51,296 nucleotides of DNA. Origin: Shigella phage SFP17. The position numbers and the translations under genes were made by a program. This document shows, piece after piece, positions 5,694 through 51,265 of this stretch (its first letter is position 1; every line of letters starts with the position of its first letter). The notes under the pieces were generated by a model. The model worked only from the letters and a program-made list of their open reading frames with translations. It was not told where the DNA came from and did not search any database. The DNA is taken from sequence record MN432485. One strand, 5' to 3'.

Positions 5694-5739
5694 ATTATGC
5701 CCGACACAAGGCCGGGCGTTTTAACAAAAAGTGCTATTT
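5694..5739 (-). promoter_or_regulatory. conserved-motif promoter (motif + 22 nt dyad spacer + CATAAT)
   Basis: AAATAGCACTTTTTGTTAAAAC then GCCCGG...CCGGGC then CATAAT; upstream of 5482-5661. Confidence 0.5.
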
Positions 5740-6713: not shown

Positions 6714-6759
6714 ATTATGGCGCAATCCTTCGCGCCTGTTTTAACAAAAAGTGCTATTT
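6714..6759 (-). promoter_or_regulatory. conserved-motif promoter upstream of dam
   Basis: AAATAGCACTTTTTGTTAAAAC + 22 nt (GGCGCgaaggattGCGCC) + CATAAT. Confidence 0.5.
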
Positions 6760-14734: not shown

Positions 14735-14978
14735 AGGAATAGATCAGGTAGTTAAAGACCTGTCAGAGAGAGCGCATACAATAGCTGATGAAGGTCATTC
14801 GCCAATATCAATAATGAAATCAGCAATGTCAGATTTTAACGGGATTGGAAGTATGAGCGGAATGTTGTCAATAATGACCACTGGAAAACTTAACGCTCAT
14901 CAAACTGAACTTGCAAAGAGAATTGCTGTTAAGGTGATTGCAGTGCTTGGGATGGCTGAAAGTGAAAAAGGGGCGTAA
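14721..14978 (+). CDS. hypothetical protein (85 aa)
   Basis: RBS AAGGA; stop lies in loop of bidirectional terminator. Confidence 0.5.
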   Translation: MTKSEGIDQVVKDLSERAHTIADEGHSPISIMKSAMSDFNGIGSMSGMLSIMTTGKLNAHQTELAKRIAVKVIAVLGMAESEKGA

Positions 14979-14990
14979 TGCCCCTTTGTT
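14965..14990. terminator. bidirectional intrinsic terminator between convergent blocks
   Basis: AGGGGC-gtaat-GCCCCT with T-runs on both strands. Confidence 0.75.
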
Positions 14991-14992
14991 GA

Positions 14993-15445
14993 TCAGAAAG
15001 GAATGTCGTCGTCAAAGTCCATAGGAGGTTGATTGCTTTGTCTTGGCTGTTGCGGTTGTTGCGGTTGATTCTGTTGTTGTGGCTGCCCACATCCTCCTTG
15101 CGTTCGCTGCTGATATTGTTGCTGGCTTTCCCCGCGCTGACTGAAGATAAGATTTGCAAATCCTCCTGGCATTAAACTTGAATACATCTTTCCGTTATAT
15201 TCGCGCGTTTCAATGCGCAGCGTGTCGCAAGATACAGAAATAACCTTGCCAACCTGGAACGCCTCAGCATACCAATCATTAAGACCTTCTGTTTTGGCAT
15301 TAAAAAAGAAACTGTAGTTTGTATATTGCCAGTTTCCATCTTTATCTTTGTATCGCTCTGAAAGTTCAACCACATAAAGTGTGCTGCCGTTAGGCATTTG
15401 CTTTACTCGCGGCTCTTTTCGGATCTCACCAGTAATAATATGCAT
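14993..15445 (-). CDS. ssb: single-stranded DNA-binding protein
   Basis: OB-fold-like N-terminus, Gln/Pro/Gly-rich tail ending in MDFDDDIPF; RBS AGGAGA. Confidence 0.9.
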   Translation of the reverse strand: MHIITGEIRKEPRVKQMPNGSTLYVVELSERYKDKDGNWQYTNYSFFFNAKTEGLNDWYAEAFQVGKVISVSCDTLRIETREYNGKMYSSLMPGGFANLIFSQRGESQQQYQQRTQGGCGQPQQQNQPQQPQQPRQSNQPPMDFDDDIPF

Positions 15446-15460
15446 GTTTTATTCTCCTGT

Positions 15461-15482
15461 AAAAAAGGGGCGCAATCGCCCC
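15461..15482 (-). terminator. intrinsic terminator/attenuator between erf and ssb
   Basis: GGGGCG-caat-CGCCCC followed on minus strand by TTTTTT, immediately before the ssb RBS. Confidence 0.6.
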
Positions 15483-15488
15483 TGTCAA

Positions 15489-16145
15489 TCATTCAAAATC
15501 AGTGATACTTTGCGATTTTACTTGCTCGTCGTTTTTTGTGTCAACTTCTGGCGATGCAAGATTTTGTTTTGGTTGCGCTGGATTAAATCCTCGTGCTTTG
15601 CCGATCTCAAGCTCTGCCTTGCGCTTCTCGTAATGCTCTTTAATTACCTGCTTGCTTGCCGGATCGCTTGCCTTCCATGCTGATTTAAGCACTTCTTGCA
15701 ATTCGTTTACGCTTTCGCATTTCTCAATGTCACGCTTCCAGTCGTTTGCAGATTTAACGGCAATCTGTGCGTCATCGTCTGCCTGGCTTAAGCCAAATGC
15801 AGCTGCTGCTGCATAACGACGAGCGTATGTGAATGCGGATCCGACACCTTGAGGATCGTTTTTAACGATTGGTAGCTCTGCGTAAAATTTCACCCACTGA
15901 CCGGAAACATGAAGAACTGTTGTCTCAACCTTGATTCTGTTTGGTTGTTCGCTTTCAATCATGTCCTGCATCAACATTAGCTCGTTATCATTCAATGCTG
16001 GAGTGATTGCATCAAGTACGGCATCAAGCGTTGCGTAACGGTTTTTGAGGTGCGTGTTTTGCTTATCTTTCTTCACCTTTACAAACAAACTACGCGCCTT
16101 ATGCAGTGCTGGTAAAACCTTGTCGAATTGCTCTGATAGTTTCAT
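15489..16145 (-). CDS. erf: Erf-family single-strand annealing protein
   Basis: [24 protein letters not shown] resembles the conserved core of P22 Erf as recalled; sits between exonuclease and SSB. Confidence 0.8.
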
Positions 16146-16190
16146 GATTAATTCCCGTAATTAATGGCGGCTTTCGCCGCCTTGTTGCTG

Positions 16191-16469
16191 TTAATGTTTT
16201 GTTTCTTCTTTGGTGTGTAATTTAATCAGATTTTCCATCATGCGATCAGAACTTTCTTTTACCGCCTTTATTGCTTCCTCGTTGTCTTCGCTCATTGTTG
16301 CAACAAGTACGACGTTATCGACTGCATCCATTACTTTTCTGATGTACTCCATTTCTTCTGCGCCTGCCGTTGGATCAAGCGGCGCCACAAAGTCACGAAG
16401 CAACATAGCCATGCCGGTTGCAAAATTATTGATATGAATTGCTACCTCTGACACTTGTTTGTTTTCCAT
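16191..16469 (-). CDS. hypothetical protein (92 aa)
   Basis: RBS AAGGA; between exonuclease and erf. Confidence 0.6.
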   Translation of the reverse strand: MENKQVSEVAIHINNFATGMAMLLRDFVAPLDPTAGAEEMEYIRKVMDAVDNVVLVATMSEDNEEAIKAVKESSDRMMENLIKLHTKEETKH

Positions 16470-16498
16470 GTTTATTTCCTTACGCTTATTGTTGACTT

Positions 16499-16545
16499 AT
16501 GCGGTGAATTATAACACCGCATTTTTCATTTGTTTAGCTATTTGT
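16499..16545 (-). promoter_or_regulatory. hairpin with TATAAT in loop plus shortened motif (AAATAGCTAAAC)
   Basis: ATGCGGTG-aattataa-CACCGCAT stem-loop; AAATAGCTAAAC 21 nt upstream of TATAAT on minus strand; upstream of 16191-16469. Confidence 0.3.
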
Positions 16546-16550
16546 GCTGT

Positions 16551-17612
16551 TTAAATAAGATATTGCTTAAACTGGCGTCGCACCCAATCAGGAGTATCAA
16601 GGCAAACCTCCGGCTCACCGTTTGAATACGAAGGCCAAACGTCATGTTGCTGGCACATGGCAAACTGGTTAATTACGCTCATGTACTGAATGCGCCCGAT
16701 CTTCAATTGCTCGCTATTCATGCGGAAAGCCAACGGCAAATAAGGCTCTTTATTCTCTTGCGCTAACAGTCGAACAACTATAGGTCGCTTTTCTTCTGGA
16801 TACGCTTTTCTGAATAAATCACATTGCAACGCCATTTTCAAATAATAGCCGTGATTGTAAGCCAGGCGCATAAACTCAACCGGATTCGCGCTCATTGTGG
16901 TTTTGTAGTCTGTGATCACAATGGCCTCTGGATAAATAATATCGCGGCAAATCGGATGACCTTTTTCATCGTAACCATCAATCAGCGTTGCGGTGACGTT
17001 CTTTGTTACGTCAACGTGATCGCATCGCACTTTGACTTTTACGCCGTTGATTTCACCGAACAACGATAATTCACGTTGTGCTGTCTTGCTATTCATACAT
17101 GCGTTATGTTCCGGTATTGATTCCAGAACCTGGCGCATTGCAACGCACGCATCGTAATCTTTAGATTCGATTAGCTGTACGCCGTCAGCCCTGGCCTGGC
17201 TTTCTGCGATCATCTCAATCAACCACATAACGTTAAGGTCTTCTCCGCAATCCACCATCATTTTGATAAGGTCTGGATAAGTCTTTCCTGTTGTACCTTT
17301 CAGGCCAAATGATTTCAGCTTTGCAGCAAGTGCCGTTTGGCTAGTTATCAGATCCTTAAAGTCTTCTGGCGCTGGCGCGCGTCGATAGGTTTTTTCGAAA
17401 AGCTCCTTGCTTTCAAAGTTGGTATGCGACTGCGTACCGAAAACTAGCGCCTTGCTCTTATCGTCACGCGGCTTGAACTTCCACGCTGCCGGGCATGTGC
17501 TGTAAATCTCTGCCAGGCTTGAACCGCTAACATAATCAGCCGTCCACGCTTCTGGATCGTGATAAAGCTCATTGCTCATTTCTTCGCTGGTGTACGCCAT
17601 AAACTTATTCAT
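16551..17612 (-). CDS. PD-(D/E)xK recombination exonuclease (353 aa)
   Basis: ITDYKTT catalytic-core motif; RBS GAGGG; first gene of the exo-erf-ssb module. Confidence 0.8.
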   Translation of the reverse strand: MNKFMAYTSEEMSNELYHDPEAWTADYVSGSSLAEIYSTCPAAWKFKPRDDKSKALVFGTQSHTNFESKELFEKTYRRAPAPEDFKDLITSQTALAAKLKSFGLKGTTGKTYPDLIKMMVDCGEDLNVMWLIEMIAESQARADGVQLIESKDYDACVAMRQVLESIPEHNACMNSKTAQRELSLFGEINGVKVKVRCDHVDVTKNVTATLIDGYDEKGHPICRDIIYPEAIVITDYKTTMSANPVEFMRLAYNHGYYLKMALQCDLFRKAYPEEKRPIVVRLLAQENKEPYLPLAFRMNSEQLKIGRIQYMSVINQFAMCQQHDVWPSYSNGEPEVCLDTPDWVRRQFKQYLI

Positions 17613-17722
17613 GATTTGCCCTCATTGGTTGGTATGTCTGCATTGTAGCTATTTGATGCGTTTAGTCAATAGTTATTTTGTTTTTTCTGTTCTAACAACG
17701 TTCTCACCAACTTGGATAACAA

Positions 17723-17830: not shown

Positions 17831-17940
17831 ATAATCACAATAAAAATCACCGGACACGCAAAATCACACAAAACATAGATAACAAGAAAAAACAAATATA
17901 AATATATATACTACTAACTTATTGATTTATATGTATGTAT
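17831..17940. repeat. iteron/AT-rich repeat block, copy A
   Basis: ATCACA/ATCACC iterons incl. TAAAAATCACC, then AACAAATATAAATATATATACTACTAACTTATTGATTT; ~85 percent identical core to 47491-47530; plus strand almost G-free. Confidence 0.6.
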
Positions 17941-42273: not shown

Positions 42274-42319
42274 ATTATAGCGAGGCATTGCGCCCCGCTT
42301 TTAGCAATTCGTGCTATTT
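42274..42319 (-). promoter_or_regulatory. conserved-motif promoter (GAATTG variant)
   Basis: AAATAGCACGAATTGCTAAAAG + 22 nt + TATAAT; upstream of 41839-42243. Confidence 0.5.
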
Positions 42320-46397: not shown

Positions 46398-46443
46398 ATT
46401 ATGCCAGGATTTGCACCTGGCGTTTTAACAAAAAGTGCTATTT
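46398..46443 (-). promoter_or_regulatory. conserved-motif promoter
   Basis: AAATAGCACTTTTTGTTAAAAC + 22 nt (CCAGGtgcaaatCCTGG) + CATAAT; upstream of 46180-46365. Confidence 0.5.
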
Positions 46444-47375: not shown

Positions 47376-47545
47376 ACATATAAAAATCACCACACATCAC
47401 CATTGATTAAAAAATATACAATCACACATACATATCACCACAAACAATACCACTCCACCATATACCCATAGAACAAGCTCAACAGTAAATAACAAATATA
47501 AATACATATATAACTAACTTATTGATTTTATGGGTATATATATAA
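47376..47545. repeat. iteron/AT-rich repeat block, copy B
   Basis: TAAAAATCACC plus 4-5 ATCAC(C/A) iterons, then AACAAATATAAATACATATATAACTAACTTATTGATTTT; direct orientation relative to copy A; plus strand almost G-free over ~125 bp. Confidence 0.6.
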
Positions 47546-47821: not shown

Positions 47822-47867
47822 AAATAGCACTTTTTGTTAAAACGTGCCTGACTGGATTCGGCATAAT
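47822..47867 (+). promoter_or_regulatory. conserved-motif promoter
   Basis: AAATAGCACTTTTTGTTAAAAC + 22 nt + CATAAT; upstream of 47906-48178. Confidence 0.5.
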
Positions 47868-50529: not shown

Positions 50530-51225
50530 ATGTATAAAGGTTTAATATTCTCTTTGTTTGATGGATCTGGCAAAGCCGTTAAAGATTGGGCGGAGGCTGG
50601 ATATCAATGCATTTGCTTTAATGCTGATGATGCTGATCATGGTGATTACCAGTCAGTGCGGATAATTCACGATAACATTTATTACGTTAACGCGTGGATT
50701 GATGCTGATTTTATATATAAAGCGTGCCTTGAAACATGGGGTAAGCCTGATTTCATTATGGCATTTCCGCCTTGCACACAATTAGCAAATAGTGGATCTC
50801 GTCATTGGGCTAAAAAGCGCATGGAAAATCCTAACTTCCAATATGAAGCCGCCGACACTTGCAAAATTGCGGCGCATATCGCTGATTATTTCGGTGTTCC
50901 GTACATGATAGAGAATCCTGTAGGCAAGCTGTCAACGTTATGGCGCAAGCCTGATTATACGTTCCATCCGTGCGATTATGCTGGCTATCTTCCGGAAGAT
51001 GATAAGCATCCCGACTTCCCTGATATTATTCCGGCGCGGGATCGGTACTTTAAGAAAACATGCCTTTGGACTGGAAACGGATTTGTTATTCCTCCGCGCG
51101 CAACAATCCTTCCTAAAGAGGATGACAAGGATAATCCTGGTTGGGCCAAAACTGGCGGAAAATCATCTCGCCGCCCTACTCCGCGAGGTTTTGCTCGCGC
51201 CGTCTTTGAAGCTAACGCAAAATAG
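50530..51225 (+). CDS. putative DNA methyltransferase (C5-cytosine-like motifs)
   Basis: Motif I-like LFDGSG, motif IV-like FPPCTQ, motif VI-like IENPVGKL; RBS GAGGTGA; short (231 aa) so assignment is tentative. Confidence 0.55.
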   Translation: MYKGLIFSLFDGSGKAVKDWAEAGYQCICFNADDADHGDYQSVRIIHDNIYYVNAWIDADFIYKACLETWGKPDFIMAFPPCTQLANSGSRHWAKKRMENPNFQYEAADTCKIAAHIADYFGVPYMIENPVGKLSTLWRKPDYTFHPCDYAGYLPEDDKHPDFPDIIPARDRYFKKTCLWTGNGFVIPPRATILPKEDDKDNPGWAKTGGKSSRRPTPRGFARAVFEANAK

Positions 51226-51265
51226 CACTTTTTGTTAAAAGCCAGGTGTAAAAGCCTGGCATAAT
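51220..51265 (+). promoter_or_regulatory. conserved-motif promoter driving the gene at window position 1
   Basis: AAATAGCACTTTTTGTTAAAAG + 22 nt (GCCAGGtgtaaaaGCCTGGC) + CATAAT, then RBS AAAGGAGA at window end. Confidence 0.5.

Follow-up and report, generated by a model that had tools for sequence, protein, structure and literature searches.

Between two genes transcribed from the minus strand of Shigella phage SFP17 lies an 81-nt gap in which an inverted repeat encloses the hexamer TATAAT, and the question raised by this locus is what a hairpin with a promoter -10 element in its loop does there. The window analysed here is the whole SFP17 genome (MN432485; 51,296 bp), a complete T1-like coliphage genome of the Drexlerviridae, and the gap separates an upstream exonuclease gene from a small downstream gene, orf92, which is followed by erf. 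As argued below, the element is very probably the promoter of the orf92-erf recombination unit. Moreover, we put at roughly one half the probability that it is a composite promoter/stem-loop cassette, whose hairpin works in read-through RNA as an attenuator or 3'-end structure.

A preliminary description of the locus had noted a hairpin that carries TATAAT in its loop on the minus strand, and this was confirmed at positions 16499-16522 as a perfect 8-bp stem with an 8-nt loop. Written on the plus strand, the arms are ATGCGGTG (16499-16506) and CACCGCAT (16515-16522), and the loop is AATTATAA (16507-16514). Five of the eight pairs are G-C, giving the stable stem and short loop that are characteristic of intrinsic terminators. 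As RNA, the 81-nt intergenic segment has a minimum free energy (MFE) of -16.7 kcal/mol on the minus strand (z -3.7) and -17.2 kcal/mol on the plus strand (z -2.8), with the hairpin dominating both folds, and as DNA the 32-mer folds at -8.8/-8.6 kcal/mol on the two strands (z about -5.5). Perfect 8-bp stems with loops of 3-10 nt occur 18 times in the genome, against 8.65 +/- 3.0 in Markov-1 random sequence (about 2-fold). Since a perfect 8-bp hairpin is thus not rare in 51 kb, its reality has to be judged from comparison with relatives rather than from this genome alone. An inverted-repeat search with the minimum length set to 16 did not pick up the hairpin at 16499-16522, its only results being imperfect palindromes at other places, and the single match in an Rfam 15 scan of 16100-16700 (14.3 bits against a gathering score of 70, E = 0.55) is meaningless. 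In the GenBank record of phage G29-2, the orthologous hairpin is annotated as a terminator predicted by ARNOLD.

Read in the direction of the flanking genes, the hairpin is superimposed on a promoter. The last two bases of the sense-strand 5' arm, TG (16516..16515), are an extended -10 motif, and the whole element, TGtTATAAT (16516..16508, minus strand), has both the hexamer and the TG of a sigma-70 extended -10 promoter. The promoter scan scored TAAACA-17-TATAAT at 10 of 12 matches, with the TG present. On the standard spacing of 6-8 nt between the -10 element and +1, transcription is predicted to start at about 16502..16500 on the minus strand. The sense-strand tail that follows the stem is AAGUCAACAA, without the U-tract of an intrinsic terminator.

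In order to compare relatives, the region downstream of the exonuclease gene was collected from 77 loci, which reduced to 44 unique sequences from the lineages of Tunavirus T1, Hanrivervirus, Warwickvirus, Tlsvirus, Henuseptimavirus, Sertoctavirus and the Klebsiella phages. Invariance of the -10 and TG, and covariation, were computed on 20 diverse in-register orthologues, and fold energies (RNAfold) on 25 representatives. In the 20 orthologues (T1, TLS-like phages, Warwickvirus, Sertoctavirus, Klebsiella phages), the TG and the bases T-A-T-A-n-T are invariant. Among the weakest blastn matches, in phages such as T1, Shfl1 and pSf-2, the intergenic block alone aligns (query 128-183, 86-87% identity) and the flanking coding sequence does not. 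The preliminary description had also proposed a minus-strand promoter that uses the loop TATAAT and is linked to a conserved motif, and this proposal stands: the -10 and TG are invariant in the 20 orthologues, the distance to the motif is that of the promoter family described below, and a Shine-Dalgarno sequence and orf92 follow.

The conserved motif is an element already described, the 21-nt direct repeat (DR) of T1- and TLS-type phages. In TLS, 18 intergenic copies (DR1-18) with the consensus aaATAGCACnnnTTGnTAAAA have been described, all pointing the way transcription runs, and their function was left open, with a stoperator, an enhancer site or an UP element offered as guesses (PMC11447400). 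The copy at the SFP17 locus, which may be written by blocks as AAACAGCAC-AAATAGC-TAAAC (16552..16532), begins within the exonuclease stop codon TAA (16553..16551), which its first bases overlap. It lies on the same strand as the genes (minus) and ends 62 nt before the orf92 ATG, so that it is intergenic and co-directional. Its position equals that of TLS DR9, which is oriented with transcription between the exonuclease gene (gp51) and gp52, but the copy differs from the TLS consensus, whose conserved blocks are a 5' ATAGCAC and a 3' TAAAA, as a diverged 'A-type' with 3 mismatches.

In the preliminary description, the motif had been taken for a shortened form, AAATAGCTAAAC, lying 21 nt from TATAAT. 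This string is contained in the repeat at 16543..16532 and its actual distance from TATAAT is 18 nt (16531..16514), while the apparent shortening was a mis-registration, given that a full 21-nt copy, AAACAGCACAAATAGCTAAAC, is present at 16552..16532 with 3 mismatches. A reading of the repeat as carrying a 9-nt deletion was likewise rejected, as it arose from a scan with the 22-mer AAATAGCACTTTTTGTTAAAAC (up to 6 mismatches) that missed the copy at the locus, and the published consensus with its free positions gives the full length. Taken by itself, the match is weak: of the 15 positions specified in the ATAGCACnnnTTGnTAAAA core, the 19-nt core of the copy, ACAGCAC-AAA-TAG-C-TAAAC, mismatches 3, and about 2.4 such matches are expected by chance. 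It is backed, however, by the canonical repeat at the orthologous site of the TLS-like phages Stevie (where it is a repeat_region of the record), SP-126, F115, Brooksby and TLS. In these phages too, the exonuclease stop codon contains the start of the repeat, and downstream of it the hairpin GATGCGTG-GTATACTA-CACGCATC surrounds the -10 element. An exact-sequence literature search with AAATAGCAC returned unrelated primer matches only.

The spacing between repeat and -10 element follows a rule that extends well beyond this locus. With the published consensus, 22 copies of the T1/TLS repeat are found in the SFP17 genome, each pointing the same way as the genes around it, and every strong copy is followed, 17-18 nt past ...TAAAAC, by CATAAT, TATAAT, TATAGT, TATATT or TATTAT. 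Across 540 unique repeat-downstream sequences, taken from IMG/VR contigs and the SFP17 genome, the distance from TAAAA to the start of the best -10-like hexamer is 19 nt in 78% and 18-20 nt in 89%, and the spacing at the locus fits this family rule. The TTGnTA within the repeat would stand 22 nt away from the -10 element; the repeat would therefore replace a usable -35 element rather than supply one, and from these distances it appears to form the upstream half of promoters that, as a family, have no usable -35. The TLS study (PMC11447400) contains neither a fixed 18-19-nt distance from repeat to -10, nor embedded hairpins, nor a strand bias of hairpins. Directly past the predicted start of many repeat promoters we also observed a block CAtCGAaACGA (copies at 46422, 47822, 48699, 49196 and 51220), to which AAGTCAACAATAAG corresponds at the locus studied here; the block may be part of the 5' untranslated region (UTR) of the cassette.

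A hairpin around the -10 element is kept in every Drexlerviridae lineage sampled, with differing stems. The variants of the stem include ATGCGGTG in SFP17, ATGAGGTG in T1, and GCGGGGTG, GCGTGGTG, GCGCGGTG, GGTTGGTG, ACGGGGTG and GATGCGTG, and in some lineages the stem has another register or length (ATGGAGG/CCTCCAT, CGGTGAT/ATCACCG, GAGCCAATT/AATTGGCTC, GTGATGCTCA/TGAGCATCAC) and is still placed around the -10. Among close relatives, the arms are the most variable part and the flanks and loop are constant; in many orthologues, a T.G closing pair narrows the loop to the hexamer itself. In the 20-sequence alignment, 93.8% of the stem cells are paired and in six of the eight pairs both partners have changed. 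Covariation reaches a score of 0.609, as compared with 0.224 in shuffles (0 of 500 reach 0.609) and at most 0.17 for slid registers. Judged by these substitutions, the base pairing of the inverted repeat is almost certainly under selection, whereas the sequence of its arms is not.

The 5' arm also holds an ATG, from which a small open reading frame (ORF) runs for 16 codons to a TAA in SFP17. We do not regard it as a coding feature, since many lineages (GCGGGGTG, GGTTGGTG and others) lack the ATG, which has no Shine-Dalgarno sequence and lies upstream of the predicted transcription start. The annotation of gp52 in TLS (supplement of PMC11447400) starts at an ATG 10 nt past DR9, which falls within the 5' arm of the orthologous hairpin. 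This ATG is similarly upstream of the predicted transcription start and without a Shine-Dalgarno sequence, and a shorter gp52 start, as in phage Stevie with its annotated ribosome-binding site, is more plausible.

The strand on which the hairpin folds was assessed from its wobble pairs. Twelve stem cells are wobbles on the sense (minus) strand against 2 on the antisense (plus) strand, and since the sense G.U positions become A.C mismatches on the plus strand, the paired fraction there is 87.5% rather than 93.8%. The sense fold is also the more stable one in 19 of the 25 representatives, with a summed MFE of -341.9 against -277.7 kcal/mol. The independent sense-wobble events at the locus number roughly 6-8 versus 2, and because these are few, the whole promoter family was tested as well. 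For this purpose we used 217 cluster representatives of the repeat promoters, counting as a hairpin any that has 6 or more Watson-Crick pairs in the 50 nt past the repeat. By this definition a hairpin is present in 126 of the 217, as against 39 +/- 6 in shuffles, an approximately 3-fold enrichment; its loop is centred on the -10 element in 71 of the 126, and in 44 the hairpin lies in the spacer. Among the interior transition mismatches on the sense strand there are 68 G.T versus 21 A.C, where composition-matched shuffles give a null G.T fraction of 0.43 (binomial p = 1.5e-10), and the excess is seen both for hairpins with the loop on the -10 (44 vs 12) and for those in the spacer (22 vs 2). 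Together, these comparisons suggest that the fold probably acts in sense-strand RNA, and the folded molecule would be RNA rather than the non-template DNA strand.

The family further indicates where such folds occur. In SFP17, a stable fold (z < -1.5) is found at 13 of the 15 repeats for which a co-directional upstream ORF has its stop codon next to or within the repeat, and at 0 of the 7 without such an ORF (Mann-Whitney p = 0.002, Fisher p = 2e-4). The same association holds for 206 cluster representatives, with 72% versus 31% (odds ratio 5.7, p = 1e-8). The right arms of the family hairpins end mostly at -1, and the promoter's own transcript therefore excludes the hairpin. In 15 of the 22 SFP17 copies, the stop of the upstream ORF is the repeat's own TAG (in ATAGCAC) or a TAA just before it; the cassette thus gives stops in two reading frames, as expected of a portable gene-end-plus-promoter module.

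These observations may be drawn together as a composite cassette of about 85 nt, which comprises the exonuclease stop, the repeat (about -51 to -31), the extended -10 element in its stem-loop, the predicted start at about 16500-16502, the 5' UTR, and the Shine-Dalgarno sequence with the ATG. As the transcript of this promoter starts at the end of the 3' arm, the hairpin would form solely in RNA that enters from the exonuclease gene. A terminator scan found no sense-strand terminator between the exonuclease gene and the hairpin, and the exonuclease transcript must therefore enter the promoter and hairpin, making the exonuclease promoter (17669..17642) the source of the read-through RNA. Read-through exonuclease RNA would then fold the hairpin, with the result either that read-through is attenuated or terminated, or that the exonuclease message gains a protected 3' end. 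Attenuation would insulate the downstream promoter, relieve promoter occlusion and set the ratio of exonuclease to erf expression, and the hairpin would mark the end of one message and the beginning of the next. For attenuation or 3'-end formation as the effect of the hairpin, the odds appear about even.

Several points weigh against this proposal. No U-tract follows the hairpin on the sense strand, and the -10-centred hairpins of the family have a mean of 1.4 U in the next 8 nt; the hairpin is thus not a canonical intrinsic terminator, and its efficiency may be low. Because the sequences compared are phylogenetically related, counting cells makes independent events look more numerous than they are. 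A hairpin in the non-template DNA strand would equally lead one to expect the sense-strand wobble bias, and 31% of the repeats without an upstream ORF of at least 50 codons still fold well. Finally, a search of the literature returned no transcript 5' or 3' ends for any T1-like phage (Drexlerviridae).

The missing sense-strand U-tract makes a post-transcriptional stabiliser or processing mark a serious rival. The same sense RNA hairpin could be non-terminating and act solely on the finished transcript, where it would hold back 3'-5' exonucleases, or mark a processing site and thereby stabilise the exonuclease message inside a longer polycistronic RNA. A stem without a U-tract would fit this role, as would the second U-tract-less hairpin (16166..16181), 320 nt downstream and with a GNRA loop on the sense strand only, and the fact that a real U-tract terminator comes only past erf. 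By sequence alone, a stabiliser is inseparable from attenuation, yet the analogous promoter-early stem-loops (PeSLs) have been reported as terminators or attenuators in a reporter test (PMC2839356), and we regard the stabiliser as possible but unlikely. A more radical proposal is that the cassettes constitute a distinct transcription 'punctuation' system of the Drexlerviridae, in which a factor of the phage or the host, or else an unusual contact with RNA polymerase, reads the repeat, and the hairpin couples termination to the next initiation. The repeat would here replace a usable -35 element, and the hairpin, without a U-tract and ending at -1, would stop or release the incoming polymerase; in a bolder variant, a non-template-strand hairpin would present the -10 as single-stranded DNA to sigma-70. 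We consider such a system quite unlikely. That the hairpin is a switch which turns the promoter on or off, as the preliminary description suggested it could be, would require a DNA hairpin or cruciform, or a non-template-strand hairpin exposing the -10 as a single strand, to act on the promoter, for example through supercoiling. The -10 hexamer does lie exactly in the loop, which in many orthologues is narrowed by a T.G closing pair to the hexamer alone; sigma-70 region 2 reads the non-template strand, the very strand that shows the wobble bias, and the DNA fold reaches -8.8 kcal/mol. However, a stem of 8 bp that closes a loop of 6-10 nt is poorly suited to extrusion, we found nothing indicating that it is extruded, and the opposite strand would have A.C mismatches in many relatives. 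Furthermore, about one third of the family hairpins (44 of 126) lie in the spacer, where they do not expose the -10 and nevertheless have the same bias (22 G.T vs 2 A.C), and family hairpins occur mainly where a co-directional gene reads into the promoter, with repeat promoters that lack such a gene usually hairpin-free, which is unexpected if the hairpin is part of initiation. The spacer hairpins and the scarcity of hairpins at promoters without upstream genes thus make a DNA-level switch less likely, indeed very unlikely, and fit a role at the RNA level on read-through transcripts.

Two further explanations treat the inverted repeat as something other than a sense-strand fold. The T-run that the preliminary description saw after the stem on the plus strand is present as TTTT in SFP17, and it had been taken to make the hairpin terminator-like for antisense transcripts; on this reading, the hairpin would be an intrinsic terminator for plus-strand transcription running into the recombination genes. 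In the family, too, the A-rich repeat upstream of the hairpins places 3-4 U among the 8 nt that follow the stem on the antisense strand. Yet the T-run is not conserved at the locus, being replaced by TAATTATTTG in T1 and by CGAATGGC in TLS-like phages. Read on the plus strand, the wobbles (12 vs 2 in favour of the sense strand) turn into A.C mismatches, and folding is weaker on the antisense strand, the sense fold being the stronger in 19 of 25. Moreover, no plus-strand gene or strong promoter feeding into the hairpin site was found in the ORF list or the promoter scan, the nearest plus-strand genes stopping at 14978, behind a bidirectional terminator (14967-14987). An antisense terminator is therefore highly improbable. 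The inverted repeat could instead be an operator at which a dimeric regulator occludes the -10 element, given that it forms a 24-bp palindrome centred on the -10 and that palindromic half-sites would also co-vary symmetrically. However, half-sites ATGCGGTG with at most 1 mismatch number 40 genome-wide, against 44 expected, and there is no second palindrome. The arms vary around an invariant centre, the reverse of what is expected of an operator, the register of the stem shifts in some lineages, and recognition by a protein does not predict a G.T bias on one strand. Selected pairing without selected arm sequence, in a palindrome unique in the genome, thus argues against a protein operator, which we regard as scarcely probable at all.

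The composite cassette is set among genes of recombination. The region 15400-17700 has 95-97% identity with the Escherichia phages Fulano1, Henu8, vojen and pSf-1 (Drexlerviridae, Tempevirinae), and the features discussed are collected in the table.

Table. Features of the promoter/stem-loop locus, its neighbourhood and other repeat copies in SFP17 (positions in MN432485)
Feature	Position	Strand	Basis or remark
Full-length 21-nt T1/TLS-type direct repeat, 'A-type' copy AAACAGCACAAATAGCTAAAC	16532..16552	minus	3 mismatches to aaATAGCACnnnTTGnTAAAA
-35-like hexamer TAAACA	16531..16536	minus	4/6 match; overlaps 3' TAAAC block of the repeat; 17 nt upstream of -10
TTTT after the stem (complement of sense AAAA upstream of the hairpin)	16523..16526	plus	sequence
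Hairpin 5' arm (sense) ATGCGGTG	16515..16522	minus	about promoter positions -21 to -14
Loop TTATAATT holding -10 hexamer TATAAT (16513..16508)	16507..16514	minus	sequence, promoter scan
Hairpin 3' arm (sense) CACCGCAT, over discriminator and predicted transcription start	16499..16506	minus	
orf92 Shine-Dalgarno AAGGA (16481..16477) and ATG (16469..16467)	16467..16481	minus	sequence
orf92, 92 codons, first gene behind the promoter	16191..16469	minus	ORF
Second hairpin GGCGGC-GAAA-GCCGCC, between orf92 and erf, without U-tract	16166..16181	minus	-14 kcal/mol, z -3.9
erf (single-stranded-DNA-annealing protein), second gene of the unit	15489..16145	minus	Pfam ERF, E = 5.9e-25
Canonical intrinsic terminator closing the orf92-erf unit, 7-bp GC-rich stem then TTTTT	15466..15483	minus	terminator scan
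ssb, after erf	14993..15445		ORF
RecE-like PD-(D/E)XK exonuclease gene, upstream, co-directional	16551..17612	minus	ORF; Pfam DUF3799, E = 3.6e-15
Exonuclease promoter, sigma-70-type, TTGACT-16-TACAAT	17642..17669	minus	promoter scan; counterpart of TLS P51
Example repeat copy	602-620	plus	
Example repeat copy	5719-5737	minus	
Example repeat copy	6739-6757	minus	
Example repeat copy	42299-42317	minus	
Example repeat copy	46423-46441	minus	
Example repeat copy	47824-47842	plus	
Example repeat copy	51222-51240	plus	

In the records of relatives, the exonuclease gene is annotated as exonuclease VIII. The product of orf92 has no Pfam match; RefSeq records and PHROG 11265 label it 'tail length tape measure protein', which is implausible for a product of 92 residues encoded inside an exonuclease-erf-ssb recombination module. 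The second hairpin, about 320 nt downstream of the promoter hairpin, is the equivalent of the 'T52' terminator listed for TLS, and its GNRA loop exists solely on the sense strand.

The first gene behind the conserved promoter and hairpin varies among close relatives, being either orf92 or an unrelated ORF of 85 amino acids (ityhuna, tonijn), and in T1, MatMar and mar001J1 it is missing, so that erf comes directly. These gene insertions and deletions fall exactly at the cassette boundary. Elsewhere in the genome, two AT-rich 95-nt stretches, 17834-17928 and 47434-47528, are 71% identical and both end ...ACAAATATAAATA[T/C]ATATA...ACTAACTTATTGATTT; both lie where gene orientation appears to change strand. 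Among the database records, 18 named 'Campylobacter phage A1xx', with Campylobacter jejuni listed as host (e.g. MG065669, MG065675, MG065671, MG065680), have about 92-97% identity to the coliphage region. Such a host is odd for a T1-like enterobacterial phage, and the records may reflect mislabelling or contamination.

The closest parallel to the proposed cassette is found in T4-type phages. PeSLs are repeated intergenic cassettes, which open with the stop codon of one gene and close with the Shine-Dalgarno sequence and ATG of the following one (Arbiol et al. 2010, PMC2839356; Comeau et al. 2014, PMC4122927). Their stem-loops, which contain G-T pairs, lie between -35 and -10 or overlap the -10, and were reported by the authors as terminators or attenuators in a lacZ reporter test (PMC2839356), and PeSLs are sites of modular gene shuffling (PMC2839356, PMC4122927). 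The T1-type cassette similarly extends from an upstream stop to a Shine-Dalgarno sequence and ATG, is present in many copies per genome, which as in PeSLs mostly precede small early genes, and combines a promoter of the host-RNA-polymerase type with a GC-rich stem-loop in the spacer or over the -10 that contains G-T pairs. Gene gain and loss at the cassette, with orf92 present, replaced or absent, is a further likeness. Conversely, the two are not homologous in sequence: where PeSLs have near-consensus -35 and -10 elements and polyG/polyC stems, T1-type cassettes carry a specific 21-nt repeat in place of a good -35 element, often an extended -10, and stems of mixed sequence. Furthermore, terminator and promoter activity have been assayed for PeSLs, whereas those of the T1-type element are predicted from sequence. 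Given the dedicated repeat, the lack of shared sequence and the absence of polyG/polyC stems, the T1-type cassette is an analogue of PeSLs rather than a member.

With intrinsic terminators, the element shares a GC-containing stem-loop directly past a gene, but it has no U-tract on the strand that is transcribed and on which pairing is conserved, and the T-run of the other strand is lineage-specific. Promoter elements tied to an extruded or single-stranded hairpin are known from the promoters of the N4 virion RNA polymerase and from the Frpo-type single-stranded-DNA promoters of the F plasmid. These require a dedicated polymerase or entry of single-stranded DNA, and they have either 3-nt loops with specific bases or a -35/-10 duplex within the stem. 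At the locus studied here, by contrast, the -10 element lies in the loop of a hairpin with a 6-10 nt loop. For TLS, no phage polymerase or sigma gene has been reported (PMC11447400).

The repeat itself was already known. Not described in the searchable literature are the -10 element linked to it at a fixed distance, the hairpins embedded there, the bias of these hairpins towards one strand and their dependence on upstream genes. If each repeat forms the upstream half of a promoter, giving roughly 20 such promoters per genome with the -10 element at 18-19 nt, the repeats would provide a transcription map for T1-type phages, in which most repeat promoters that follow a gene have a stem-loop selected to fold on the strand of that gene. 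This would also explain why terminator-prediction programs call "terminators" inside promoters. The idea of a promoter/stem-loop cassette, including the gain and loss of genes at it, would thereby be extended from T4-type myoviruses to an unrelated family of siphoviruses. In addition, the arrangement suggests how the exonuclease, Erf and SSB recombination genes may reach different expression levels, and the stated question of what the T1-like repeats do becomes directly testable.

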